Shown here piece after piece: positions 2,091 through 16,195 of a DNA stretch of 64,000 bases. The notes beneath the pieces were generated by a model, which ran no database searches, was not told the DNA's origin, and saw only the letters and a list, made by a program, of their open reading frames with translations. Each line of letters opens with the position of its first letter. The first letter of the stretch is position 1. The stretch covers positions 78,707 through 142,706 of the forward strand of contig CAVTZP010000005.1 in assembly GCA_963739245.1 (NCBI GenBank), given 5' to 3'. Position numbers and translations under genes: made by a program. Source of the DNA: an uncultured delta proteobacterium. Its GTDB lineage: Bacteria > Chloroflexota > Dehalococcoidia > Dehalococcoidales > BS750m-G39.

Positions 2091-2199
2091 TCACCTTCAC
2101 GTCCCGCTTTGCCAATGGCACTGGCAACTGCACTCAATTCCTCCAAATGGTTGGTGAGCATGAGTTGTATAAACTCAGAGGTTCTCAGGGCTTCTGTCC

Positions 2200-2964
2200 C
2201 CTAACCTTAGAGAGCCAAAGAGGTTCTGGGGTATATCTGACCTGTCGCAGATTATGGAGTCGCAGCGGGAGCTTAACCGGGCAGTGTCACAGCTATCCCG
2301 GATATTGGAGCTATCGGGTAACCCTATTGCCGTGCTGGAGAATGTGGAAGAGGCTGAGGATATTGCCGTCAAACCGGGGGCGGTGTGGACTATCCCCGAG
2401 GATGCTAAAGCCTATCTCCTTGACCTGCTACAGGGTGGTGGGGTCGGGCTGCACATAGATTATATCAACCTATTATATAGAATCCTGCACGATATATCTG
2501 AATCCCCCCGGGCCGCCTTTGGTGGCACCGAGAGGGACCTATCCGGGGTAGCCCTTGAGATTGAGCTTAACCCGCTGCTGCAGAAGGTGAGGCGAAAGCG
2601 GATTATCCGGACTGCCGTCTATAACCGGAGAAACCGGATGATTCTTAACCTTCTGGAGCAGTACCACGGGGAAAGCTTCGGTGAAAACCGCTTGCGGGTA
2701 ATCTGGAGTCCGGTACTACCCCAGGATTTAAGCCGGCTAATTTCTAATGAGCAGACACTGGTTCAGAGTGGTATTCATTCCCGGCGTGGGGCTATGGAAG
2801 AGGTGGGGATTGAGGACCCGGAGAACGAGTTTAAGCGGTGGTTGGAGGAGAGGGAGACAATTCTCAAAATGAATAAGCAGCTTAACGCTAAGTCAGCTCG
2901 AGGCGGAGAGGGAGGGAGAGCTTTAGCCACCGAGGCTGGAGGCGTTGAGGAATCTCCATCATAA
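2200..2964 (+). pseudogene. Phage portal protein, 3' portion only (interrupted)
   Basis: Frame reads PNLREPKRFWGISDLSQIMESQRELN...DLSGVALEIEL...VIWSPVLPQD, portal-like; too short for a full portal; directly upstream of scaffold and capsid. Confidence 0.75.
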
Positions 2965-2975
2965 GGAGGTGAAGA

Positions 2976-3476
2976 TTGCCGGATAAGAATAATCAACCCC
3001 AAAATCCCGCCGGGGAGGAGCTGGAAAGTGCCGCGACTAGGGTCGTGGAGCTTGAGGAGCTTGTCGCCAGCAAAGAGAGGGAGCTTGCGGTCAAGGACTT
3101 GCGTATCTCTGAGCTTGAGCCAGCAGTAGCTAGTCGGGATGACCAGATTGTTGCCCTCAAGCAGTCCTTAGCTGAGCTGGGGGGGAGGTTGTCTGAGTTG
3201 GAGAGCAGGTTATCGCAGGCGGTATCAAGCTACCGGGCTCTGGTAGTCAAATCAAACCCCGCCGTGCCTGAGGAGCTGATAACCGGGGACAGCATTGAGG
3301 AGATTGACCACTCTCTAGCCAGTGCCCAGGTCCTTGTTGATAGGGTAAGGCAGGGGCTGGGGGCTGAAATCGCCGCGGCAAAAATCCCGGCGGGGGCGCC
3401 ACTACGGACGCCGCTGGACTTCTCGGCGCTGTCCCCCAAAGAAAAGATTCAATATGCAATAGGAGAAAGGAGATAA
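2976..3476 (+). CDS. Putative capsid scaffolding protein
   Basis: Coiled-coil 166 aa between portal and capsid; AGGAGGTG RBS with TTG start. Confidence 0.65.
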   Translation: MPDKNNQPQNPAGEELESAATRVVELEELVASKERELAVKDLRISELEPAVASRDDQIVALKQSLAELGGRLSELESRLSQAVSSYRALVVKSNPAVPEELITGDSIEEIDHSLASAQVLVDRVRQGLGAEIAAAKIPAGAPLRTPLDFSALSPKEKIQYAIGERR

Positions 3477-3480
3477 AAAA

Positions 3481-4401
3481 GTGGCATTAACATTGAATGA
3501 GGCAGCCAAGCTGTCAAACGATATGCTTCTGCAAGGGGTGGTGGAGACCATAGTCAGGGACTCGCCCATCCTTCAGCAACTATCCTTCATTGAGATTGTA
3601 GGCAATGTCCTGACCTATAACCAGGAAAAGACCCTGCCCAGCATAGATTTCTATGATGTCGGTGACACCTGGGCTGAGTCCACCCCCACCTTTGAGCAGA
3701 AAACGGCAAGCCTGAAGATTATGGGTGGTGATGCCGATGTTGATAACTTCCTTAAGGCGACCAGGAGCAATATCCAGGACCTGGAGGCCGCCGTGGTTGA
3801 GCTCAAGGCTAAGGCACTCAAGGATAAGTTTGAGGATACCTTTATCTACGGCGATTCCGCCGCCAGCGCCAAGCAGTTTGATGGCCTGAAGAAGCTCATT
3901 GATACCACCACCGCCAGCCCCCAGGTAATTGCTATGGGGCCAACCGGGGCTACCCTTACCCTGGCGAAGCTGGATGAGCTTATTGATGCCGTAAAGGGCG
4001 GTAAGCCCGCCCTGCTGCTGATGAGCCGGCGCTCAAGACGCAAGCTCAATGCCCTGGTCAGGGCCGCTGGTGGCATGATTGAGACCGATAGAGACAACTG
4101 GGGTAACTTTATCCAGTTGTGGGACGGCATCCCCATCGGCGTCAATGACTGGATACTGGATACCCATGTCCTTACCGATAGTGTGGAGACGGCAACCACC
4201 GGGGGCACCTGCTCCACTATCTATGCCTTCCAGATGGGCGAGGGGGCGCTATGCGGCTTGACCAGCCCCGGTCACATCACTGTTGAGCCAATCGGCTCGC
4301 TGGAGACCAAGGACGCATCACGGACCAGGATTAAGTGGTACTGCTCGCTGGCCCTGTTCAGCTCAATCAAGGCCGCCGCTTTAATCGGGGTTCAAGACTA
4401 A
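3481..4401 (+). CDS. Phage major capsid protein (HK97-fold likely)
   Basis: 306 aa, MALTLNEAAKLS...GGDADVDNFL...FIYGD...FDGL motifs typical of capsid proteins; gene order portal-scaffold-capsid. Confidence 0.85.
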   Translation: MALTLNEAAKLSNDMLLQGVVETIVRDSPILQQLSFIEIVGNVLTYNQEKTLPSIDFYDVGDTWAESTPTFEQKTASLKIMGGDADVDNFLKATRSNIQDLEAAVVELKAKALKDKFEDTFIYGDSAASAKQFDGLKKLIDTTTASPQVIAMGPTGATLTLAKLDELIDAVKGGKPALLLMSRRSRRKLNALVRAAGGMIETDRDNWGNFIQLWDGIPIGVNDWILDTHVLTDSVETATTGGTCSTIYAFQMGEGALCGLTSPGHITVEPIGSLETKDASRTRIKWYCSLALFSSIKAAALIGVQD

Positions 4402-4415
4402 AACTAGCCAATTTT

Positions 4416-4443
4416 GGGGAGCCCTTCGGCTGAAGGGCTCCCC
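4416..4443 (+). terminator. Perfect 12-bp hairpin after capsid gene (terminator or mRNA stabiliser)
   Basis: GGGGAGCCCTTC-GGCT-GAAGGGCTCCCC; no U-tract. Confidence 0.55.
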
Positions 4444-4457
4444 CGGAGGAGAGAAAA

Positions 4458-4983
4458 ATGGAAAATAAGATGGAAAATAAGGATGTAGCTCAGTGGATTT
4501 GTCGCTATCGGCTGGAGAAGAGAGAGGGCGATATCAATGCCTGTCAGTCGCCAGAGGAAAGGCTCGCCTTTTTGGAAAATATCAAGCCTTATGAGGTGAT
4601 TGAGGGCGAGGGTAACTGCCTGCTTAATACTGGCATTGATGAGATGTGGGACCTGATCGCTGGTGACTCGGCTAACCACTTTAATAATGCCAATGCCCAG
4701 ATTGGCGTTGGTGATTCCAATACTGCGGCTAATGCCACCCAGACCGATTTACAGGCAGCGACTAACAAGACCTACAAGGGTATGGAGACCGGCTATCCCA
4801 CCTCTACTTCTCAAAAGGCGACCTTTAAGGCTAGCTTCGGTGCTTCTGATGCTAACTATACCTGGAATGAGTGGGTGGTGAAGCAGGCGACCAGTGGCAA
4901 GTGTCTTAACCGGAAGGTTGACGCCTTGGGGACAAAATCAAGCTGGCACCTGGACTTTAGAGGTTAGCATTACTTTGAGCTAA
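4458..4983 (+). CDS. Virion structural protein, apparent frameshift near 4940
   Basis: NCLLNTGIDEMW..IGVGD..WNEW motifs; removing one base gives C-terminus GTKSAGTWTLEVSITLS* ending at 4983. Confidence 0.6.
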
Positions 4984-5013
4984 TAGTAAGTAGCCAAGAC
5001 ATAAGGAGAGTAA

Positions 5014-5812
5014 ATGGCGACTAAATTAGTCGGTGCTGATGATGTTGCTCAAACTGGTAATGAAGGCGCAAATTACTTTCTCCTCTGTAAGTTTACTGCT
5101 GTAGCCTCAGGGACCATGACCGAGTTTAGAGTAAAGTCAGCGGTTGCTGGTAATGTTAAATGCGCTATCTATGCTGATAACGCCGGAGAACCCGGAGCTT
5201 TAATTACTAGTATGAACACCGGGCAAGCAGTAACCGGTAGTGGCTGGGAGACGTTAACCTTCACCCCAACCTCTATAACCAATGGTGTTGCTTACTGGCT
5301 TGCCGTCTGCTTTGATACAGCAGGAGCAGTTACTTATAAAAATAGTGGTGGCGGCACACCCTATAGAACGAAAACAGCAACCTATTCCTCTTTTACTTTC
5401 CCCGACCCAGCAGGTTCAGGTTTTACTAGCTACAACAATTTCTATGACATAGAAGCAGGCTGGGAAGCAGCCACTGCCAAGACCTCATCGGATACTGGCT
5501 CTGGTGCTGATGCCTATGTCTCGCTGGAAACCGGCGAAGCTAAGACCTCATCCGATGCCGGCTCCGGTGTAGATGGCACACCAGTGCCGAGTGCGAGCTT
5601 GGCTGGCAGTGAAACCGGCTCCAGTATTGACGCCATTATTGCCCGGTTACTGGCTGCCTTTGACACTGGCGGTGGTGTTGAAGCCGCTAGTATTGAAGTT
5701 GGGGAGCTGTTCCAGGAGCTGTTTGCCAGCTGAACTGGGGCAGGGCTCCGATTCCCTTGCCGCCAAGATAGAAATGCCAACCAAGGGGGGAGGTATGAAA
5801 TTATGGACCTAA
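5014..5812 (+). CDS. Putative virion fibre/decoration protein (beta-rich N-domain plus SDxGxGxD repeats), apparent frameshift near 5730
   Basis: ORF 5014..5733 continues in the shifted frame ELGQGSDSLAAKIEMPTKGGGMKLWT* to 5812, overlapping the next start; DUF4082-like AIYADNAGEPG...YWLAV segment. Confidence 0.55.
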
Positions 5813-6396
5813 ACACAATGAGAAGTATTATCCGGCGCGACCTGAAGGATGAGGACCCGTCAAACTACCGCTGGAGCGATGATGAGCTGGATAGGCACAT
5901 CGCCCACGCGGTAAAGGAGTTCTCGGAAGCGGTGCCTCTGCCGGCAAAAGCCACCCTGCCCACCACCCCGGGCTCCAGGGTGATTGATATATCATCCCTC
6001 ACCGATAGGGTTATGGTGGAGGCGGTGGAGTATCCGGTAGATAAGTTCCCGCCCGGCTACCAGAGGTTTGCTCTCTGGGGGCATGCCCTGACCCTTTTTG
6101 GCGATGAAGTCCCCGATGGCTCTAACTGCATTGTCTATTACGGTATGCTCCATACCCTTGATACTCAGGGGTCTACCATCCCCACCAAGCACGAGGACTT
6201 GATTGCTATCGGCGCCGAGGGCTATGCCGCTGTGGAGTGGGCGAGCTATGCCATCAACAGGGTTAGCCTCGGTGGCACCACAACCCCGGGGGAGTTCCTC
6301 AACTGGGGCAATGAGAAACTAAATCAGTTTAGAAGCGAGCTAAAGAGACTGGGGAGAAGAAACCTGGTCAGAATTCGCCAGCTCTACAAGATGTAA
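5803..6396 (+). CDS. Putative head-tail adaptor/connector protein
   Basis: 197 aa, RRDLKD...YRWSDDELDRHI motif typical of adaptor proteins; position in structural cluster. Confidence 0.6.
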   Translation: MDLNTMRSIIRRDLKDEDPSNYRWSDDELDRHIAHAVKEFSEAVPLPAKATLPTTPGSRVIDISSLTDRVMVEAVEYPVDKFPPGYQRFALWGHALTLFGDEVPDGSNCIVYYGMLHTLDTQGSTIPTKHEDLIAIGAEGYAAVEWASYAINRVSLGGTTTPGEFLNWGNEKLNQFRSELKRLGRRNLVRIRQLYKM

Positions 6397-6412
6397 AGGA
6401 GGTTAAAGAAAA

Positions 6413-6562
6413 ATGATAGAACGACTGTACAAGTGGCTTTGGACTAGGATAGGTGGCCGACCCTGGACTTATATTATCCGGGATAACCAGAGGCAATATC
6501 CTCTGTTCTGGCTTCTTCTGTTTGGTGCCCTCGGCATTTTGCTCGGTCACCTGTTCTGGTGA
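6413..6562 (+). CDS. Small membrane protein (49 aa), possible holin-like
   Basis: Not in ORF track. MIERLYKWLWTRIGGRPWTYIIRDNQRQYPLFWLLLFGALGILLGHLFW*; AAGGAGGT RBS. Confidence 0.65.
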   Translation: MIERLYKWLWTRIGGRPWTYIIRDNQRQYPLFWLLLFGALGILLGHLFW

Positions 6563-6578
6563 AGTCTAAAGGAGCTAA

Positions 6579-8581
6579 ATGAGGCAGCTTAGTTCAACAT
6601 TGCTTGCCGCTCAGCAGCAGGCGACCGGTGCCCCCTATGTCAGGGTGGAGGCATCAAATAGGCACGCCGGGGTGGTCAACCTGCGGTGGGCAAGGCTTTA
6701 TACCGGCGCGGAGGATGATTACTTTCACGCTGTGGCCATGCCCGGGGATGGCTCCCTAATCAGGGTCAGGATAACACCCCCGGCTGACTCCAGGAAGCTG
6801 TATCGCCAGAGGGTGGCCAGCCCCAACCCCCAGTCCGATTTCAGCCAGTGGGCCTACACCAACCAGTATGACGTTGTTACTGTGGCTGGCTGCTGTCTCG
6901 GGGCTGAGGTCTCTATCTTCTGGATTAAGAGCGACCGGAAGGTCTACCAGCTAAAGAGCACCGACTACGGGGTTAGCTGGGGAAGCCCCCAGCTCCTTGG
7001 CTATACCCCCACCACCGCCATCAATGGCATTGCTGCCTCGTATAAGCCGAACGGCGATATTGCCCTGTTCTTTGCTGACCAGGCAACCCTCTATGTAATG
7101 AAGCGAATAGGTGGTAGCTGGGGGGATAAGGTCGCCTGGAACAAGTCAACCGGCGACCTGTCAGGTGTTGCTGCCGTTTATGGTGGCGATTGGAACCTTT
7201 TTATTACCGGGAAGGATTCTAACGGTAATTTCAAACTTTGGTCGCTGGTTTATGGTGACGGTGGGGATGTCGCTGCTGGCACCTGGTCGGAGCTGAAGGA
7301 GTTTGCCTCAGCCCCGTCAGATGGCAGCTTTGAGTACCGGGCGGCGTTTATGGATAAGCCCGATGTCTATCGCTGCTTCTTTGTTGAGAAGTTTAGCGGA
7401 ACCACGTCGTACAGCCGCCCCTTCTGGTCGCACTCAGTGTTGGATGCTAAGTTTATTGACAACCCGTGGCATGAGCCAGTACCGTTCAACCTTTCCTGCC
7501 AGTATGGCATGGCTATCGCCCACCACGGCGAGTATTGCTGGCTATCTACCCCCTATGGCGTGTGGCGGGCTAAGCTGACCCCCGAGAGCCTGGACTTGTC
7601 TGCCGACGTCCTGTCATTAAGGCAGGAGCTCACCTCAAACAGAGGTAGTCTTACTGTTGAACTCAGAAACGATGATGGCCGGTATGCGGCACCAGGACAG
7701 GGTGACCTTTCCGTCCTTGACATCGGCGGTCAGCTTGAGCTTAGCCCGGGCTATGTTACCTCTCAGGGGAGTGAGACGAGCTCAGGACTTATCTTTACCC
7801 TCAACGCCTATGAGCATACCAGCTCCGGTGGTAAGGCGAGCCTGATTCTCCATGCCTCAGACGGCTGGAGCCTGATTGAAAGCTGGAGAGCCAGGCACCA
7901 GTTCCGCTGGAATAAGCAGAGTAATGAGCTGAGCGTTAAACAGCTCCTTCAGTTTGTGCTGGCCAGGGTCGGGCTGGGCTTGAGACAAAATCCCAGTCGG
8001 CGGTGTTAACCGGCTACTACCCCGATTTCACCATCAACCCCAATAATAGCGGTGACAGCGTTATCAGCCGCCTGCTGTCCTTCGTCCCTGATACTTTATT
8101 TATTGAGGGCAACAAGGCCTACGTGGTAAACCCGCAAGCATCGGATAGCTCCGTCTATAGCTATGGTTCCTCTCATTATATTCTGGATGGCAGGTATAGA
8201 GAGGCGGCTCAGGAGCTTAACCGAGTCCAGGTTGAGGGTTATGACCCGACGCAGAGCAAGGCGATTGTGGTTGACTGTTTCGCCTGGGACCAAATAGAGC
8301 GGCTCTATGACCGGCTGAGGCAACTTGAGGATAAGAATATAGATACTGTAACTAAGGCGGAGCAGAGGGGGGAGGCTTATCTAAGACGGGCGGAGGTGGC
8401 ATCGGTTAATGGTTCCATCCTCATCCCGGTTAATTGCGGCCAGCAGCTATATGATGTTATTGACATCACCGATAGCCGGGCCGGTCTTGATGCCGCCAAG
8501 CGGCGGGTGCTCGGGCTGGCCCTGGTTTATAGTCCCAAAAGCGGGGAGTACCAGCAAAGGTTATTGCTCGGCGGGGTATAG
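6579..8581 (+). CDS. Large tail/baseplate-hub-like protein, split by apparent frameshift near 7976
   Basis: ORFs 6579..8009 and 8003..8581 join as ...ARVGLxLETKSQSAVLTGYYPDF with one added base; Asp-box-like STDYGVSW; hub-like C-terminus. Confidence 0.6.
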
Positions 8582-8594
8582 AAATTGTTTATCT

Positions 8595-8729
8595 ACCTCA
8601 CCCCCTTAATCCCCCTCTCCTTTAAAGGAGAGGGGGAGGAATAAAAAAGAGGGGGGGGCGAAGCCCCCCTCTTAAAACTACTTCCCCCTTCCCCTCTAGG
8701 GGAAGGGGGTCAGGGGGATGGGGTTACCA
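8595..8729 (-). repeat. GC-rich multi-hairpin intergenic repeat (REP/MITE-like), copy 1
   Basis: ACCTCACCCCC end, hairpins CCCCCTCTCC..GGAGAGGGGG, AAGAGGGG..CCCCTCTT and CCCCCTTCCCC..GGGGAAGGGGG. Confidence 0.85.
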
Positions 8730-8814
8730 CCTAAAGCAGGTTCCCTGAAAATCAAAGATTCTTAAGGGTGCATAAAAGCGATAGGGTTATAAGAATATTT
8801 AAGGGGAGACTGAA

Positions 8815-9027
8815 ATGAGGCTGAGGAAAGCAGTGCTGAAGGGTTTCAACTCCGGGGACTATACCGCCACCGTCCAGGTTGCTGGCAGCTATAAGGTCTA
8901 TCTGGAGGGTATTTCTGTGGCGCGGAATCTGCCCGCCGCCGAGATGGCGCTGGGCAGAAAGGTAGCGGTTATATTCTTTGACGAGAATAACGCCAAAGAC
9001 GCCGTTGTTATCGCCGTTTATACTTAA
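8815..9027 (+). CDS. Small phage-cluster protein (possible OB-fold spike-like)
   Basis: 70 aa, beta-rich, last gene of structural cluster; AAGGGGAG RBS. Confidence 0.55.
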   Translation: MRLRKAVLKGFNSGDYTATVQVAGSYKVYLEGISVARNLPAAEMALGRKVAVIFFDENNAKDAVVIAVYT

Positions 9028-9088
9028 TCTGTGCCGAGAGAGAGCTGCCGCGCTGGTAAAAACAGGCTAGCTAAAGTGAGTGCCAGCA

Positions 9089-9490
9089 CTATTGTGGTGC
9101 TTGTTCTTTGCTCACGCCCTGGGCAATATTCTTTAAGATAGTAAGGATGGCAATGAGGGCACGCTGCACATCAACCGGCTCCCGGGCAAGCACACCAGCC
9201 ACATAGGGGTCTACCATGCCCCCGGAATACTCCGACCCGGCCTCAGCCACGCCGGAAGAATGGGAAGATAGATACCCGGCTAAGGTAAACAGCCCATCCT
9301 CACCAATGCCCAGAGGCTTGGCGATTCTCCGCAGAACGCGGGCCGAAGGATAGCGCTCCCCCCTCTCTATCCGCCCGAGATGGGACGGGGATACCCCTGA
9401 CATGGTAGCCAGCTCCTGGAGTGTCAGTGGTATGGTAACCCTCTGCCGCCTAATGATTTCGCCTAAATTGTTACTTCTTCCGTCAAACAT
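9089..9490 (-). CDS. Xre-family HTH transcriptional regulator (paralog of 26170..26562)
   Basis: LTLQELATMSGVSPSHLGRIERGER HTH. Confidence 0.9.
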   Translation of the reverse strand: MFDGRSNNLGEIIRRQRVTIPLTLQELATMSGVSPSHLGRIERGERYPSARVLRRIAKPLGIGEDGLFTLAGYLSSHSSGVAEAGSEYSGGMVDPYVAGVLAREPVDVQRALIAILTILKNIAQGVSKEQAPQ

Positions 9491-9594: not shown

Positions 9595-9623
9595 TTGACG
9601 ACTAAAGCCACTGGTTATACAAT
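9595..9623 (+). promoter_or_regulatory. Sigma70-type promoter
   Basis: TTGACG-N17-TACAAT. Confidence 0.6.
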
Positions 9624-9639
9624 GGCAGGGTTGGCGAAA

Positions 9640-11031
9640 ATGGCTAAAAGATACGATGTTATCATCGTTGGTGGTGGTCCAGCGGCTATCTTTGCCGCCC
9701 TTGAGCTGTCCCAAGCCTCTGGCCTGGATATCCTGCTTATAGAGAAAGGGAGGCATATTGATAATCGCCACTGCCCGACCCGTGACACCGGCAATCCCTG
9801 CCCCCCATGCTCACCGTGTAACCTTGTCTGTGGTCTGGGTGGGGCTGGCGCTTTCAGCGACGGCAAGCTAACCCTATCATCGCTGGTTGGCGGCCGGCTC
9901 CCCAGTTACCTCGGGGAGAGCGAGACTGAAGCCCTTATCCGCTATGTTGATGAGGTATACCTCAGGTTTGGCGCCCCGAGCAAGCTGTATGGTGTGGGCC
10001 AGGGAATTGACGTGCTGAGCGCTAAGGCTGACCGCGCCGGGCTCAAGCTGGTGGCGGTGCCTATCCGCCACCTGGGCACCGAGAATTGCCGTTCGGTGCT
10101 TAAGGCGATGTGGGATTACCTTAGCCCGCATATAGAGTTCAGGCTTGAGACAATGGCGGCCACCATCACTACTGACCAGGGTAAGGTCAAAGGGATTAAG
10201 ACGGAAGCCGGGGAGAGCTTTGACTGCCGCTACCTTATTCTGGCTCCGGGAAGGGAAGGAGCCGATTGGCTCGCCCAGGAAGCGGGCCGACTCAATCTGA
10301 TCGTAGATATCAACCCCGTTGATGTTGGGGTTAGGGTCGAGGTGCCGGCGACAGTAATGGAGGAGTTGACCAGTGTCCTCTATGAGTCAAAGCTGGAGTT
10401 TCAGTCAAAGAGCTTTGACGACCGGGTCAGGACCTTCTGTATGTGTCCTGGTGGAGAGGTCATCATGGAGACCACCGGTGGTGGTGACCCGGTAATCACC
10501 GTTAACGGTCATAGCTATGCCGAGCGTAAGACCAGCAACACCAACTTTGCCCTGCTGGTGAGCACAACCTTCACCAAGCCGTTTCGGGAGCCTATCGCCT
10601 ACGGCAAATACCTGGCGAGGCTGGCTAATATTTTAAGCGGCGGGGTTCTGCTCCAGCGCTTTGGCGACCTCATGGCGGGTCGGCGTTCCACCCCAGCCCG
10701 CATTGAAAGGGGCTTGGTTCAGCCGACACTAATCGATGCCACTCCCGGCGACCTCAGCTTTGCCCTCCCCTACCGCTACCTCACCGACATAGTGGAGATG
10801 CTCAAGGCAATGGATAAGCTGGCGCCGGGTGTCGCCTCAGACCACACCCTGCTTTACGGGACTGAGGTTAAATTCTACTCCAGCCGGCCTCAACTCAGCC
10901 CCAGCCTGGAGACCGAGGTCAGCAACCTGTTTGCCGTTGGCGATGGGGCTGGCATTAGCCGTGGCTTGATTCAGGCGTCAGCTTCCGGTGTGGTCGCCGC
11001 CCGCGAGATATTAAGGAGGGGCAAGCATTAG
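9640..11031 (+). CDS. FAD-dependent oxidoreductase (COG2509-like)
   Basis: IIVGGGPAAIF dinucleotide motif, GLGGAGAFSDGKL, RTFCMCPGG, GDGAG. Confidence 0.85.
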   Translation: MAKRYDVIIVGGGPAAIFAALELSQASGLDILLIEKGRHIDNRHCPTRDTGNPCPPCSPCNLVCGLGGAGAFSDGKLTLSSLVGGRLPSYLGESETEALIRYVDEVYLRFGAPSKLYGVGQGIDVLSAKADRAGLKLVAVPIRHLGTENCRSVLKAMWDYLSPHIEFRLETMAATITTDQGKVKGIKTEAGESFDCRYLILAPGREGADWLAQEAGRLNLIVDINPVDVGVRVEVPATVMEELTSVLYESKLEFQSKSFDDRVRTFCMCPGGEVIMETTGGGDPVITVNGHSYAERKTSNTNFALLVSTTFTKPFREPIAYGKYLARLANILSGGVLLQRFGDLMAGRRSTPARIERGLVQPTLIDATPGDLSFALPYRYLTDIVEMLKAMDKLAPGVASDHTLLYGTEVKFYSSRPQLSPSLETEVSNLFAVGDGAGISRGLIQASASGVVAAREILRRGKH

Positions 11032-11044
11032 CCCCAGTTTTATA

Positions 11045-11180
11045 TGGTAACCCTATCCCCCTGACCCCCTTCCCCTGAGGGGAAGGGGGGAGTAGTTTTA
11101 AGAGGGGGGTGAATCCCCCCTCTTTTTTATTCCTCCCCCTCTCCTTTTGAAGGAGAGGGGGATACAGGGGGTGAGGTTAC
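11045..11180 (+). repeat. GC-rich multi-hairpin repeat, copy 2 (near reverse complement of copy 1)
   Basis: Same three hairpins in opposite orientation; ends GGGGGTGAGGTTA. Confidence 0.85.
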
Positions 11181-11186
11181 CTATGG

Positions 11187-11215
11187 TTGACAGGGCGATT
11201 CAAGCTGACTAGAAT
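11187..11215 (+). promoter_or_regulatory. rpsU promoter
   Basis: TTGACA-N17-TAGAAT. Confidence 0.7.
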
Positions 11216-11269
11216 GTAGTGATGTAAAACGACCTGAGGGTAAGATTGTGAGAAGGAGGCGGATGCCAT

Positions 11270-11470
11270 GTGGCTAATGTAAGAGCTGGCGGTGATGAGA
11301 GCTTTGAGAGTTTGCTCCGTCGGTTTAACCGGAAGGTGCAAAATGATGGCATCTTATCTGAGATACGCCGCCGCGAATACTTTGAGAAGCCTAGCCTTAA
11401 GCGTAAGCGAAAGGAAGCAGCCAAGAGACGCAAGAGCGCGAGAAGTTCAAGGGGTTCAACAAGAAGATAG
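11270..11470 (+). CDS. rpsU: 30S ribosomal protein S21
   Basis: ESFESLLRRF...RREYFEKPSLKRKRK. Confidence 0.95.
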   Translation: MANVRAGGDESFESLLRRFNRKVQNDGILSEIRRREYFEKPSLKRKRKEAAKRRKSARSSRGSTRR

Positions 11471-11479
11471 TAAGTAATT

Positions 11480-11938
11480 ATGGAACAGAAAGAAGCCGCA
11501 CTAAAGCAAAAGCTGGTGGATGACCTCAAGCAGGCGTTAAGACAGGGGGATAAGGTGAGGCGCTCGGTCATCCGCTTATTGATAGCAGCGATTAATAATG
11601 CCGAAATCGCCCGTCAGGCTAAATTAGAGGACACCGATATTTACGGCGTTATTGCCAAGGAAATCAGGCAGCGCAAAGAGAGTATTGATGCCTTTAAGCA
11701 GGGCAACCGCCCCGACCTGGTGGCTCAAGAGGAGGCCGAGCTAGCCGTCCTTCAGGAATACCTGCCCCAGCAGATTAGCCGGGAGGAGATTGTGGCCGCA
11801 GCCCGCCAGGTTATTGCCGAGGTTGGGGCACAGGGGCTCGGTGATAAGGGGAAGGTCATGCCCAAGCTCATCGCTCAGCTCAAGGGCAAAGCCGATGGGC
11901 GTTTGATAAACGAGGTAGTAACCGAGCTACTCTCCTAA
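11480..11938 (+). CDS. yqeY: GatB/YqeY domain protein
   Basis: KEIRQRKESIDAF...EYLPQQ...GKVM...GKADG; follows rpsU. Confidence 0.9.
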   Translation: MEQKEAALKQKLVDDLKQALRQGDKVRRSVIRLLIAAINNAEIARQAKLEDTDIYGVIAKEIRQRKESIDAFKQGNRPDLVAQEEAELAVLQEYLPQQISREEIVAAARQVIAEVGAQGLGDKGKVMPKLIAQLKGKADGRLINEVVTELLS

Positions 11939-13537
11939 CGCCGAGTCAAAGCCCTTTTCCAGCTCGTTTTTCAAGTGCTTGAGCTTTGTCCCGGAATCTA
12001 TTATAGCCCACGGTAACCTCTGTTTGGTATCCCATCTCTGGTTGACATAATAATCAATGTCTAGCTGGCACTTTTCTAGTGCTTTACGCCAGCCAGATAG
12101 CGATACCTCCTCCATATTAGCCAGCACCTCGGCTATTTTTTCGTCCCCCCGGGCTAAAACCCCCTGCACCTGACTCCACATCGGGCTTTCACTATTAATC
12201 TTGATGCCCTTCGGCATCAAGCGGTTTTTAAGTAAGGACAAACGCTGGTTCAGGATAGAGGGCTCGGTCATGGGCAGCCACTGGAAGGGTGTGCCGGCCT
12301 TGGGCACAAAGGGAGCAATATTAAGCACCAGGCGGCAGCCAGCCGGCTGCTTATCAAGGATATCCTTGCCCTTTAGCGTCAGTCTTATAATCCCTTCTAT
12401 ATCCTCCTCGGTCTCCGTGGGCAAGCCAATCATGAAGTAGAGCTTGACCTGCCTTATCCCCTGCTCCGCCACCTTCCCCATCGCCTCCAGGATATCCTCC
12501 TCGGAGAGGCCTTTTTTTATCATCTGGCGCAGGCGCTGGGAGCCAGCCTCGGGGGCAAGGGCAATGGTTCGGGCTTCTCCCTTAGCCAGCTCCCTCAATA
12601 CAATGCGAGAGAGTGGTCTCATGCGCAGGGAGCTGATGGAGAGTTCAGCCCCCATCTGCCCCAGTTTTAATAAGAGCTCCTCTATCCGGGGGTGGTCGGA
12701 GACGGCAGCCCCAACCAGCCCCAGGCGCTTTCTATATTTAAGTCCCTGCTCCGCCTGGACTATCAGATTGTCCAGAGAGCGATAGCGCATGGGGTGGAAG
12801 GCTTGCCCGGTGAGGCAGAAGCGGCAGCCCCAGTTGCATCCCCGCTCCACCTCAATTAAATAAAGGTCGCCCAGCTCGGTGTCCGGGGTGAGTATGATTG
12901 AGGTGACCGGAAAGTCATCCAGATTTTTTGCCCACTGGCGGACTACTGGCTTTCCCGAATAGTATTGCGGGACATAGATGCCGGGCAGTGCCGCCAGCGC
13001 CTTCAATAATTCATCCCGCCTGCCACCGAGGCTCTTAAATAGTACCGGCATCATGGCGGGTAGTATGGGCTCGGCTTCACCGATGCACAGGCAGTCAAAG
13101 AATGGAGAAAGAGGCAGGGGATTGGCGATGATGCAGGGGCCACCGGCGATAAGCAGGGGATGCCTCTCATCACGGTCGGCGGCATAAATGGGTATGCCGC
13201 TGGCTTTAAGCATAGGGACGATATTGAAGTAGTCAAGCTCGTAGGAAACAGAAAAGGCAAGAACGGCGAAGTCAGAAAGCGGGCGCTGAGACTCCAGGGA
13301 GAGAGGGGGTAGACGCTTGTCCCTGTTTTCCCTTTCCCAGAAGGCTCGTTCGCAGACAACCTCATTATAACTATTGAGCAGGCGATAGATGGTATGGAGT
13401 CCGAGATTGGACATGCCTAGATAGTAGGAGTTGGGGTAGACCAGGGCGATGGGGATTCTACCCCCCCAGTCCTTGATGATGGCCCCCTGCTCCCGGGAGA
13501 GCCGCCGCCTCGCTTTCTTGATTTCATTCCAAGCCAT
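11927..13537 (-). CDS. Radical SAM protein (TIGR03960-like)
   Basis: YPNSYYLGMSNLG; RGCNWGCRFC CxxxCxxC; APEAGSQRLR; FVPKAGTPFQW. Confidence 0.85.
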   Translation of the reverse strand: MAWNEIKKARRRLSREQGAIIKDWGGRIPIALVYPNSYYLGMSNLGLHTIYRLLNSYNEVVCERAFWERENRDKRLPPLSLESQRPLSDFAVLAFSVSYELDYFNIVPMLKASGIPIYAADRDERHPLLIAGGPCIIANPLPLSPFFDCLCIGEAEPILPAMMPVLFKSLGGRRDELLKALAALPGIYVPQYYSGKPVVRQWAKNLDDFPVTSIILTPDTELGDLYLIEVERGCNWGCRFCLTGQAFHPMRYRSLDNLIVQAEQGLKYRKRLGLVGAAVSDHPRIEELLLKLGQMGAELSISSLRMRPLSRIVLRELAKGEARTIALAPEAGSQRLRQMIKKGLSEEDILEAMGKVAEQGIRQVKLYFMIGLPTETEEDIEGIIRLTLKGKDILDKQPAGCRLVLNIAPFVPKAGTPFQWLPMTEPSILNQRLSLLKNRLMPKGIKINSESPMWSQVQGVLARGDEKIAEVLANMEEVSLSGWRKALEKCQLDIDYYVNQRWDTKQRLPWAIIDSGTKLKHLKNELEKGFDSALGE

Positions 13538-13592
13538 AATAGTGGTTTCATTATATAGGCTCTAGAATAAAATTGCGATTTTGGGGGAAGAA

Positions 13593-13621
13593 TAAAAAGA
13601 GAGGGGGCGGAGCCCCCTCTC
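13593..13621 (-). terminator. Intrinsic terminator after nrdJ (equals the central hairpin module of the repeat family)
   Basis: GAGAGGGGGC-GGA-GCCCCCTCTC with U-tract on minus strand. Confidence 0.65.
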
Positions 13622-13648
13622 ATGATGATACTCCCGTTCCCTATATTT

Positions 13649-16195
13649 CTAGCACTTAGTATAGCCGCAAGAGGGGCAGTTGTAGCACCCCTCCTGGTAG
13701 CGGAGCAGGTTGCCGCACTCCGGGCACTGCCCGGCAAGGTTCCTGGCTAAGCCGTAGTCCTCCAGCTTTGGTTCAGCGCCGCCGCCAATGTGCTTCTCCA
13801 GGACGCTGGCAATGGCATCGGCGCAGGAGAGGATGGACTTGCCCTCTTCCCAGGCGATGGAGGGGCAGCGGATGCCCCGCAGCTGCTTTACCACCGAGGC
13901 AACATCTACCCCAGCTCTTAGTGCCAGAGAGATAAGCCGGCAGGTGGCTTCAAGCTGTGCCGAGGCACAACCTCCAGCCTTGCCCAGATTGGAGAAGACC
14001 TCGCATATGCCTTGCTCATCGGAGTTCACCGTTACATAGAGGGCGCCACAGCCGGTGTTGACTCTTTCGGTAACCCCGTTGGTTACCTTTGACCTCTTCC
14101 TGGGGGTAAGCCCGACACCATCAACCTTTTCCTCCTTCTCCCGGCCCGTGACCAGCACCTGGGTCTCGCGGCTCCGGTCCCGATAGATAGTTATCCCCTT
14201 CAGCCCCTCGTCATAAGCCATCATATAAACCCTGGCGATGTCTTCCCTGGTGGCCTCGTGGGGGAAGTTGACCGTCTTGGAGACGGCATTATCGGTAGAC
14301 CGCTGAAAGGCGGCTTGCACCCTCACATGCCACTGGGGGCTTATCTCGTGGGCGGTAACGAACAGGCGCTTGATTTTCTCGGGAACACCCTCAATATCGC
14401 TGAGGTGAGCACCCTCGGCCAGCTTCTGCATCAGCTCTTTGGAGTAGAAGCCCCCCTTTCTCGCCGCCTCTTCAAAGTACGGGTTCACCTCAATTAGCCG
14501 GGCGCCGTCAAGGATATTTCTGGTATAGCTCAGGGCAAAGAGGGGCTCAATGCCGCTGGAGCAACCGGCGATTATACTCAGGGTGCCGGTGGGGGCGATG
14601 GTGGTGCCGGAGGCATTCCTCATCCGGGGACCCCCCGGCCTATCGTAGATACTGCCACTAAAGGCGGGGAAAACGCCTCGCTCCTTGGCCAGTTCTACTG
14701 ACGCCTTAGTTGCCTCATCCTGCACAAAGCGCATAATCTCGGTGGCAACCTTGAGCGTCTCCTCTGAGTCATAGGGGATGCCGAGCTCAATTAGCATGTC
14801 GGCGAAGCCCATCACCCCCAGCCCTATCTTTCTCGTTTTCTTGGTCATCTCCTCTATCTGGGGCAGGGGGAACTTATTGACATCAATGACATTATCTAAA
14901 AACCTCACCGCGACCTTTACTGTCTCCGCCAGCTTGGGGTAATCAATCTTAAAACTGCCATTGGCGGCTCTTAGCATCCTGGCCAGGTTAATCGAGCCGA
15001 GGTTGCATGACTCGTAGGGCAGCAGTGGCTGCTCACCGCAGGGGTTAGTCGATTCAATCCGGCCCAGTTGCGGGGTGGGGTTAGCCTTATTTATCTGGTC
15101 AATGAAGACAACGCCGGGGTCGCCGGTCTTCCACGCCATGTCCACTATCTTATCAAAGACCTCCCTGGCGTTGAGCTTAGTTACCACCTCCCTGGTGCGT
15201 GGGTTTACCAGGTTATAGTCCTTGCCGGCCTTGACCGCCTCCATAAACTCATTGGTTACCGCCACCGAGATATTGAAGTTAGTCAAGGCGGTAGGGTCGT
15301 CCTTGGCGGTTATGAACCGCATAATATCGGGGTGGTCAACGCTGAGTATGCCCATGTTTGCCCCCCGGCGCGTCCCCCCCTGCTTGGTGACATCGGTGGT
15401 GGTGTCAAACACCCCCATAAAAGAGACCGGACCACTGGCGACACCCGAGGTGGACTTGACAAAGTCGCCCTCCGGTCTCAGGTGGCTGAAGGAGAACCCG
15501 GTGCCCCCGCCGCTCTTATGAATGAGGGCGGTATACTTTACCGCATCAAAGATGGACTCCATTGAGTCGCTAACGGGAATGACAAAGCAGGCTGACAATT
15601 GCCCCAGTTCCCGCCCGGCGTTCATCAGGGTGGGAGAGTTGGGCAGGAACTCAAGGCTTGCCATCAGCTGGTAGAACCCCTCTTCGGTTGCCTTGGCATC
15701 CGCCTTGGGACTATAGATAAGCTCCGCCGAGGCAATGGCCCCTGCCACCCGCCGGAACATCTCCTCTGCGGTCTCAATGACCTTTCCCTGCTTATCTTTT
15801 TCCAGATACCTTCTTTCCAGGACCTGAACCGCATTTTCGCTGAGACCGATGCCAGCTGTCGGCTTAATTCCGGGCTTAACGATACTGGTTGGTTCCATCT
15901 CGGGTTTAACCTCCTCTCGTTTGGGTGGCGCTTCAGCAGCCAGAATCTCCTTGACCATAGCTTCAATTTCGGCATCGGTCGGCAGACGCTGGCGGTGGGT
16001 ACGCTTTCCTACCAGGTCTTCCATGCCCGGTAAAGCCGGCATGTATTCCTTCTGTGTCTTTTCCAGCCGCTCAATGACCTGGGTTGTCAGCCGCTCCACC
16101 ACCTGCCTGTCCCTTATACCCATGGACTCGGCGGCGGCGAAAATGGCCCGCGCAATCTGGGTGCGGTCAACTAGTGGCTTGTTAGCTGGGTTCAT
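13649..16195 (-). CDS. nrdJ: Vitamin B12-dependent (class II) ribonucleotide reductase with C-terminal TSCPD/Zn-ribbon
   Basis: [33 protein letters not shown]-terminal CPEC/CPSC. Confidence 0.95.

Follow-up and report, generated by a model that had tools for sequence, protein, structure and literature searches.

The gene transfer agent (GTA) of the RcGTA type, known from Rhodobacter capsulatus and Caulobacter, is about 15 kb long, and PBSX of Bacillus is a non-infectious particle with an Xre-family regulator, a long contractile tail and lysis genes. RcGTA has been reported, in the available parts of two studies, to be inherited vertically with losses over a whole class and under purifying selection (PMC5721377, PMC10883770). 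The accessible text of a third source names RcGTA, BaGTA of Bartonella, VSH-1 of Brachyspira, Dd1 of Desulfovibrio and VTA of Methanococcus (PMC11841831). Here we examine positions 2200-9490 of a 64,000-nucleotide stretch (the window; assembly GCA_963739245.1, contig CAVTZP010000005.1, forward-strand positions 78,707 to 142,706) from an uncultured member of the Dehalococcoidia (Chloroflexota). This gene row is the right half of a cluster of about 13 kb (12.5-14 kb in general) made of phage-derived packaging, head and short-tail genes, devoid of selfish modules and seated at a fixed chromosomal locus. With a probability of roughly 80%, we read it as the distal half of a GTA-like, phage-derived particle cluster that is a fixed chromosomal trait of Dehalococcoidia kept by selection, as the first-pass annotation of the window had proposed from a part of it. 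We consider the cluster a strong candidate for a GTA-like system that is new and arose independently. In the open-access literature on Dehalococcoidia, Dehalococcoides, Dehalogenimonas and Chloroflexota, taken without supplements, we found no description of the cluster, in line with the suspicion that it was undescribed (an earlier mention may exist), and no Chloroflexota GTA. IME1 is a different element, without tailed-phage genes in the accessible part of its description (10.64898/2026.09.15.751708).

As in RcGTA, the genes are chromosomal, span a similar length, start with the terminase subunits TerS and TerL, and serve packaging, head and tail only. The resemblance may extend to a TerS without recognisable DNA-binding domain (PMC11841831, available in part) and extends to the mode of inheritance, which is the signature reported for alphaproteobacterial GTAs in the accessible text of PMC5721377, PMC10883770 and PMC11841831. 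The origin is nevertheless independent: the capsid is phrog_212/SU10-like, the adaptor is of SU10 type and the host belongs to another phylum. Judged by family matches, the open reading frames (ORFs) of the genome holding the window (G000) and of a 100%-complete relative (G032) match only SU10, SPP1 and phrog_212-type families, and no match to a prohead protease, a tail tube, a tape measure or a Pfam family specific to RcGTA was found among these cluster ORFs. RcGTA has a siphovirus-like tail, unlike the short one predicted for the cluster, and Dd1 is described as short-tailed. BaGTA, VSH-1, Dd1 and VTA share with the cluster the concept of a phage-derived particle kept by its host, a likeness of description and not of sequence. 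PBSX resembles it as a chromosomal phage-like cluster kept in a lineage with an Xre-family regulator nearby, but contractile tail and lysis genes were not found in our cluster scans. Kuravirus SU10 is similar in that Pfam families built on SU10 match the capsid, the adaptor and, weakly, the portal, in that no long-tail gene is present, and in that a propeller-bearing tail protein follows the adaptor. The relationship is remote, since the nearest deposited phage capsids reach at most 42% identity, and the cluster lacks replication, lysis and early genes.

G000 is a metagenome assembly of 9 contigs and 1.35 Mb, with the window on contig C5; below, G numbers denote genomes and L numbers extracted loci, L006 being the stretch of G000 to the left of the window. 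All G000 proteins were mapped onto 18 related loci and later onto 80 more (98 in total), and cluster ORFs were assigned to families by Pfam and PHROGs scans. Wherever a contig reaches far enough, the gene order of relatives is invariant: helix-turn-helix (HTH) gene, uninterrupted portal, scaffold, capsid, optionally orf169 and a variable ORF, adaptor, tail gene and orf70. TerS and TerL lie upstream, with one to three TIG genes on the opposite strand between them and the HTH gene. The chromosomal frame consists of a CtpS41 protease gene and a CT398-like gene on the terminase side and, on the other, an optional Xre gene followed by FAD oxidoreductase, rpsU, YqeY, radical SAM and ribonucleotide reductase (RNR) genes. 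Both flanks are seen in five families (L019, L023, L024, L025, L026) and in two further species (L088, L089), and RpoC is encoded 10-30 kb from the cluster on the same contig in several genomes. After removal of an island described below, G000 is collinear with this frame.

The intact copy of G032 (L019:3486-15996, 12.5 kb) encodes TerS (123 aa), TerL (459 aa), a TIG protein on the other strand (812 aa), a sigma-region-4-like HTH protein (107 aa), portal (464 aa), scaffold (191 aa), capsid (306 aa), orf154, a ConA-like lectin protein (228 aa), orf78, adaptor (214 aa), membrane protein (89 aa), tail protein (669 aa) and orf70. The Pfam and PHROGs scans recognised no integrase, replication, repressor or lysin family in it, and, across 14 loci, another 85 unassigned ORFs (90 aa or longer) located within the cluster gave no match to integrase, recombinase, transposase, replication or lysin families (four ORFs of L019 had been scanned separately before). 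What G032 and these 14 loci hold is structure and packaging genes without integration, replication or lysogeny modules; the integrase and att site, repressor switch, replication and lysis modules of a functional temperate prophage were not seen in the cluster. The structure-only character suggested in the first-pass annotation is borne out in intact relatives, with the correction that terminase genes exist outside the window. Its statement that no integrase or replication gene is visible on this side holds for the cluster of relatives; to the left in G000 an integrase and replication-like genes do occur, but in the island. Likewise, no tape measure, sheath or endolysin gene turned up in the cluster scans of relatives, as expected from the window.

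Other ORFs inside the cluster span encode TIG/Ig proteins, lectin-domain proteins and, in some lineages, host proteins. The latter include FtsZ and an MMPL transporter in G017 (L022:13152-18973), and homocysteine synthesis enzymes, a ferredoxin, an acyltransferase and a carbonic anhydrase in G286 (L133:4971-10132). At L128:11720-13119 the span contains a sigma factor and its anti-sigma factor.

The cluster is widespread. Its capsid was detected in 38 of 61 relatives and in 17 of the 23 high-quality ones. In an even sample of 401 Dehalococcoidia genomes from 216 genera, 336 of these genomes being high-quality, 223 carried it (189 of the high-quality genomes, 130 genera), nearly always as a single copy; one of these carriers, G273, is an unpublished genome. 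Carriage goes by family, with frequencies of 22/25 in family f42, 27/30 in f49 and 10/11 in f53. A sporadic occurrence in relatives, which was to have spoken against domestication, is therefore not what we observe. The core scaffold-capsid-adaptor-tail-orf70 is kept in 20 loci from complete or nearly complete genomes of the class, the terminase-portal part being at times split off or displaced. In a genome collection, 353 species representatives carry capsid relatives, and the best 80 of these are labelled as Dehalococcoidia or Chloroflexota metagenome-assembled genomes, one being labelled Deltaproteobacteria. The capsid family has thousands of metagenome members and, where they are named, they are only "hypothetical protein".

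Beyond the class, capsid relatives at 47-55% identity occur in 20 sampled genomes of the phylum. In several families of other Chloroflexota classes they are single-copy and lie next to relatives of portal and terminase. In one genus of another class, a capsid relative was present in all four genomes listed. In four such loci (L138-L141) no relative of the adaptor, the tail protein or orf70 was found. We rejected these capsids as members of the same element because only head and packaging genes match; they could belong to ordinary prophages or to a second domesticated lineage.

An active temperate phage with one preferred site, recently spread through the Dehalococcoidia, would account for authentic phage head and packaging genes, and IMG/VR indeed classes 225 contigs with the cluster capsid as viral. 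However, the best 80 of these contigs (L223-L302) measure 2.2-12.7 kb, and none is longer than the cluster. No integrase, repressor or replication gene was found in 15 loci, in some lineages the cluster encloses housekeeping genes of the host, and, as shown next, synonymous divergence (dS) equals that of the host flanks and trees agree. We give this explanation hardly any credence.

The cluster diverges with its hosts across the order and more loosely across the class. Capsid identity to G000 declines from 92-95% within the genus and 86-92% within the family to 69-86% in other families of the order and about 60-70% in other orders of the class. Over 34 genomes, capsid identity correlates with identity of the RpoC C-terminus (Spearman 0.89), and in 33 of them conservation is higher for the capsid. 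For 14 taxa with both cluster and flanks, the two distance matrices give a Mantel r of 0.66, a value that none of 2000 permutations reached, and mean p-distance is 0.29 for the cluster and 0.35 for the flanks. Maximum-likelihood trees from six concatenated cluster proteins and from up to five flank proteins have 7 of 11 splits in common, compared with a mean of 0.2 and a maximum of 3 after label shuffling.

Purifying selection on the cluster is as strong as on housekeeping genes. Pairwise ratios of nonsynonymous to synonymous divergence (dN/dS) lie between 0.04 and 0.35 for every cluster gene and between 0.10 and 0.34 for flank genes. Relative to the congener G001, dS is 0.25-0.70 in cluster genes and 0.45-0.49 in flanks (dS is close to saturation beyond the family level). 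The cluster is therefore as old as its surroundings. Its composition is host-like as well, with a tetranucleotide correlation to the genome of 0.89, equal to the genome median. Fixed locus, rank correlation, common splits and dN/dS together show vertical inheritance and purifying selection, so that the check proposed in the first-pass annotation, synteny and vertical inheritance across the class, came out in favor of a domesticated cluster, with DNA transfer staying a candidate function.

These data also bear on the idea that the window merely caught an ordinary prophage remnant in decay. In G000 the portal is split, TerL has an 8-nt indel with stops and three genes have 1-nt indels, and the cluster is without integrase or replication gene of its own, all of which such a remnant would display. 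Against this, other families have an intact copy of the cluster at the corresponding locus, purifying selection acts on it, its capsid exceeds the RpoC C-terminus in conservation in 33 of 34 genomes, and the lesions are private to G000. At the family level decay is contradicted, and as an account of the cluster it is scarcely credible.

The packaging genes of G000 lie outside the window. A whole-genome search placed the N-terminal half of the portal (phrog_64 positions 89-279) at C5:34183-34770, 46 kb upstream on the same strand. The ORF that had been called portal does belong to the portal family, but it is only the C-terminal half. Adjoining the N-terminal half are a TerS-like gene and TerL, the latter split into ATPase and nuclease parts; these are followed by a SocA/Panacea gene and its partner ORF, an oppositely oriented Ig/TIG gene and a small gene of the HTH type. 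Terminase and portal rank among the best conserved genes, the N-terminal part of TerL being 81-93% identical across loci, with dN/dS of 0.055-0.058. The TerS-like protein (123-125 aa) aligns only with central positions of TerS profiles (75-146 of 276, 72-101 of 238 and 122-163 of 284). No HTH family matched it, although its basic N-terminus could hold an unrecognised binding motif.

All relatives encode one to three rapidly evolving Ig/TIG-domain proteins in the interval from TerL to the HTH gene, always on the opposite strand (L006:13931-14920 in G000; for example L019:11737-14175 in a relative). Their identity is 25-39%, rising to 66% within the genus, and the G000 protein has a hydrophobic N-terminal leader and a C-terminal anchor. 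They could be receptors, exclusion factors or unrelated passengers. The SocA/Panacea protein and its 144-aa partner ORF (L006:12414-13508) occupy a variable spot between TerL and the TIG gene, with a weak SocA match in only one other locus (L085); the two are candidates for a toxin-antitoxin system or a defence pair. Immediately before the portal, the small protein HTH91 (L006:15161-15436) combines a Cys-rich N-terminus (C-x7-C-x5-C-x2-C-x4-C) with a sigma-region-4-like HTH that matches phrog_836 (late transcriptional activator). Possibly it activates the cluster in response to metal or redox state.

In the window, the row of ORFs stands on the plus strand in the order originally read, and family scans back the portal, capsid and adaptor assignments. 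The portal fragment (2254-2964, in a frame open from 2173) covers SPP1_portal positions 280-413 of 416 and phrog_64 positions 297-512 of 547, the intact portal of relatives being 464-483 aa long. It is followed by a scaffold-like protein of 166 aa (2976-3476), which matches coiled coil only, keeps a constant position between portal and capsid, and has dN/dS of 0.16-0.35. The major capsid protein (3481-4401, 306 aa) matches phrog_212 (E 1.3e-69) and also SU10_MCP, GP7 and Phage_capsid. Next come orf169 (4458-4967), a conserved head-module protein of 169 aa (phrog_23653, E 4e-39), and a variable protein of 239 aa (5014-5733) whose G032 and G017 counterparts have a lectin domain of the ConA-like type (Laminin_G_3, E 3e-11 and 6.5e-22); the latter is likely a decoration or fibre protein. 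The head-to-tail adaptor of podovirus SU10 type (5803-6396, 197 aa) matches PF24175 SU10_adaptor with 28.2 bits at a cut-off of 27, and is conserved in every locus whose contig extends that far.

The small membrane protein predicted after the adaptor is a 49-aa ORF (6413-6562) with a hydrophobic C-terminus. Its G032 form has 89 aa, two hydrophobic stretches and no family match in Pfam and PHROGs-type scans, and the motif IGGRPWTYI(I/L)RD is common to this protein in relatives. It is a candidate release or holin-like factor. The last conserved cluster gene, orf70 (8815-9027, plus strand), encodes a small protein that is not hydrophobic, has no family match, and is 59-93% identical within the order (dN/dS 0.04-0.15).

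The genes that had been read as separate tail-like and spike-like genes are one. Their parts in G000 (6579-8009, 476 aa, and 8003-8581, 192 aa) lie in one and the same frame at 70 of 71 loci; this frame stays open over 640 aa or more at 67 of the 71, and in relatives the product is a tail protein of about 669 aa. A profile search of its two parts against PDB sequences gave nothing useful. Structure prediction, also suggested at the outset, was informative for the N-terminal part: the model of residues 1-476 (predicted local distance difference test, pLDDT, 66.9) contains a six-bladed propeller over residues 28-337. The model of the 192-residue part, which is the C-terminal third of the protein, had a pLDDT of 40 and was not used. 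The best structural matches of the propeller are sialidases (Z 22.5, root-mean-square deviation 3.2 Å, 277 residues aligned), with fucose lectins also among them, and the endosialidase of phage phi92 gives Z 20.6. The propeller contains the sequence STDYGVSWG, which we take to be an Asp-box-like motif. One possibility, that the 669-aa protein is a podovirus nozzle, was examined with Foldseek against PDB and BFVD and returned generic propeller matches only.

After the adaptor we found no tube, tape measure, sheath or baseplate gene; what follows it is limited to the small membrane protein, the tail protein of 669 aa and orf70. Because the tape measure, tube and sheath genes are missing and the adaptor is of podovirus SU10 type, the tail is read as short, in agreement with what the window had suggested. 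On the structural model, the simplest interpretation is a short tail of podovirus type whose tip binds or cuts glycans.

A tail protein with a sialidase fold would also suit a domesticated particle with another use for its host, such as a PBSX-like killer, a device for DNA release or one that degrades surface glycans. The evidence for conservation fits this equally well, an Xre-family gene is a frequent neighbour, and variable surface proteins are encoded inside the cluster. It is harder to reconcile with terminase and portal being among the best conserved genes, which places DNA packaging under selection, and with the lack of a toxin or lysis module in G032 and the 14 further loci scanned. 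We regard another host use as unlikely, though deserving of serious attention, and prefer a GTA-like role.

The G000 portal is interrupted by an island of 46,137 bp (C5:34771-80907, that is, L006:16065 to window position 2198), which sits between two adjacent codons without loss of a base. The fragments read ...GFIPFVIYP and NLREPKRFWG..., and intact portals of congeners read ...GFIPF(I/V)IYPNLREPKRFWG... straight through; no interruption is seen in any related locus covering the portal. The right junction (attR, 2198-2202, plus strand) has a CCC(C) core in common with the left junction at L006:16061-16064, and the attP reconstructed from the joined island ends is an imperfect dyad with 16 of 22 bases complementary around CCC. 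A 739-aa large serine recombinase directly abuts the portal N-terminal half at the left end of the island. It has Resolvase and Recombinase domains and matches phrog_95 integrase (E 2.4e-32), its C-terminus also matching phrog_323 (D5-like regulator), and it is encoded in G000 alone among the 61 genomes (none of the 60 relatives). Recombinase domains, precise insertion, dyad attP and empty sites in relatives identify an integrative island of the large serine recombinase kind. The skin element in sigK of Bacillus is such an island, integrated into a gene by a large serine recombinase. The likeness lies in codon-exact insertion within an ORF, a recombinase at one end, a dyad attP and an excision that would rebuild the gene. 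The present island differs in that its target is a gene of a domesticated phage cluster, in that no evidence of regulated excision was found and in that it is confined to G000 among the 61 genomes.

The other end of the island carries phage-like early genes on the minus strand, among them a sliding-clamp relative split in two ORFs. As cargo, the island includes a cluster for AglB-type (S-layer-type) glycosylation, an ABC transporter for branched-chain amino acids, LysR, two SDRs and an IS110. These genes are absent from congeners or have only distant relatives there (about 50% identical), and the island is atypical in composition (GC 46.5% versus 50.9% for the genome). The AglB/STT3 oligosaccharyltransferase lies in three consecutive ORFs of 80, 186 and 441 aa (L001:13029-15344) and is either a pseudogene or affected by frameshift errors. 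The first 2198 positions of the window are the right end of the island and hold three minus-strand ORFs (2-238, 235-1266, encoding a coiled coil, and 1263-2090) that the cluster excludes. None of them matched a phage structural family in Pfam or PHROGs or was present in the 98 related loci.

Could the 46-kb separation of the portal halves be a misassembly or an ordinary chromosomal rearrangement? G000 is a metagenome assembly in nine contigs, and host-like genes for metabolism and glycosylation occupy the centre of the interval. On the other hand, the break is codon-exact with no base lost, a serine recombinase gene abuts the left junction and is found in G000 alone among the 61 genomes, the joined ends form a dyad (16 of 22), and the cargo is absent or 50% identical in congeners and foreign in composition. 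In addition, independent metagenome contigs stop matching exactly at 2199. These come from runs X1 and X3, two soil metagenomes, which were compared along with runs X5 and X6; they match the window only from 2199 rightwards and have about 7 kb of unlike sequence to the left. Positions 1500-2033 have no matching contig from X1, X3, X5 or X6, an observation we weigh only together with the contigs that end at 2199. A misassembly or an ordinary rearrangement is thus very improbable, and the island reading is preferred. The near-identical X1/X3 strain differs to the left of the island junction. It shows 4 differences over 2.9 kb (2199-5105) and 72 over the next 3.5 kb (5076-8615), a mosaic that suggests recombination between strains within the cluster.

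In addition to the island, the G000 copy has smaller lesions. TerL shows an 8-nt length difference with TAA and TAG in the linker. A 1-nt insertion near 4944 shifts the last ~12 codons of 4458-4967, where X1, X3 and X5 have one letter fewer; orf169 of G003 ends ...GTWTLEVSITLS, and G000 has the same sequence in another frame. A second insertion of 1 nt near 5729 removes about 24 conserved C-terminal residues of the variable protein, and a 1-nt deletion near 7974 splits the tail gene, with an extra T after 7974 in all four metagenome runs compared. These indels are private to G000, other strains being without them. Flanking host genes of similar total length are free of indels, which speaks for real decay. 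A frameshift in RuvB, considered as a sign of assembly errors, was rejected as such, since the frame is open and the called ORF merely began at a later ATG. The G000 cluster copy is interrupted and, in its current state, probably non-functional. Omega on the G000 branch is 0.13-0.21, as in relatives, so that selection is not relaxed and any inactivation is therefore recent. Excision of the island would restore the portal gene, not the other damaged genes.

Downstream of orf70, the first-pass annotation had placed an Xre regulator, an oxidoreductase, rpsU and yqeY, all recovered in family scans. The Xre-family HTH protein (9089-9490, minus strand; HTH_3, E 1.6e-12) is a frequent but not constant neighbour, and some loci pass from orf70 directly to the oxidoreductase. 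The conserved host flank spans 9595-16195, with FAD oxidoreductase at 9595-11031, rpsU at 11270-11470 (resembling the Pfam-verified S21 of G032) and YqeY at 11480-11938, followed by the radical SAM and RNR genes; the same flank is found in other families. The intergenic repeat that had been noticed inside the cluster is a hairpin repeat at 8586-8730, between the tail gene and orf70. It is a multi-copy host repeat, with 111 blastn-short high-scoring segment pairs in the genome and a depth of 170-400x over it compared with about 14x alongside in metagenome contigs. In some relatives the insert is missing, and the gap between tail gene and orf70 is only 5 nt in L034 and L021. The repeat family is GC-rich with three stem-loops, and a further copy follows the oxidoreductase at 11045-11177.

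Several observations weigh against a GTA-like trait kept by selection. The capsid was not found in 178 of the 401 class genomes, including all of family f55 (0/30), family f56 (0/12) and a genus of complete genomes, g19 (0/3). Within family f10, 8 of 9 members of a genus with complete 1.7-2.1 Mb genomes are carriers, as against none of 3 in the genus whose complete genomes measure 1.4-1.5 Mb. Because it is absent from many genomes of the class, whole families and complete genomes among them, the cluster is dispensable. Outside the order the gene arrangement is looser, TerS and TerL being apart or host genes lying between portal and scaffold. No lysin or holin family matched in the cluster scans, which leaves the cluster without a recognised lysis system, and a GTA reading does not account for the TIG genes inside it. 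The comparison with RpoC covers the C-terminal 704 aa only, the flank genes used for trees are chromosomally linked to the cluster, and related genomes are non-independent, so that the correlations are overstated. Finally, the three 1-nt indels of G000 could be assembly errors rather than mutations, and the unrelaxed G000 branch is compatible with an intact, working copy in which the indels are errors.

The GTA class is defined by the DNA that its particles package, and the cluster is a candidate member. GTA particles take up largely random host DNA without preference for their own genes, in pieces too short to hold the whole cluster, and are produced under host regulation and set free when producer cells lyse. 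We would lay even odds on its working as a GTA proper. If so, a subpopulation of cells would express the cluster on a host signal, perhaps through the HTH protein, and the terminase would fill procapsids by headful packaging. Packaging may not be sequence-specific, because the TerS-like protein has no recognisable DNA-binding domain. The short, podovirus-like tail would bind or cut surface glycans of neighbouring cells and deliver the DNA. An endolysin would be unnecessary in a lineage devoid of a murein wall. Release may be the task of the small membrane protein. More tentatively, and at somewhat less than even odds, the cluster may be a true, independent Dehalococcoidia GTA that was domesticated before the class diversified, whose sialidase-fold tail would act on S-layer glycans of wall-less cells and which would need no endolysin.

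The 225 IMG/VR contigs are fragments of a chromosomal cluster, which virus catalogues probably enter as phages of Dehalococcoidia. Virus counts and host links for this class may be inflated where they rely on such contigs. Complete single-contig carrier genomes exist, which makes the candidate directly testable. The broken G000 copy and the near-identical X1/X3 strain form a natural knock-out pair, to be used as a control rather than as a working example. If the full proposal is true, this would be the first GTA of the Chloroflexota and the first short-tailed one with known genes, and its portal gene could also act as a target where a serine-recombinase island integrates and turns the agent off. 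The candidate occurs in hundreds of species of an abundant subsurface class, and only a handful of GTAs are named in the accessible text of PMC11841831. Its capsid evolves more slowly than the compared part of the RNA polymerase beta-prime subunit. We know of no natural competence or conjugation in Dehalococcoidia. If DNA is indeed transferred, the cluster would provide a mechanism of gene flow for organisms with tiny genomes, and it could be a major route of gene exchange, for instance of dehalogenase genes, in slow-growing subsurface bacteria.

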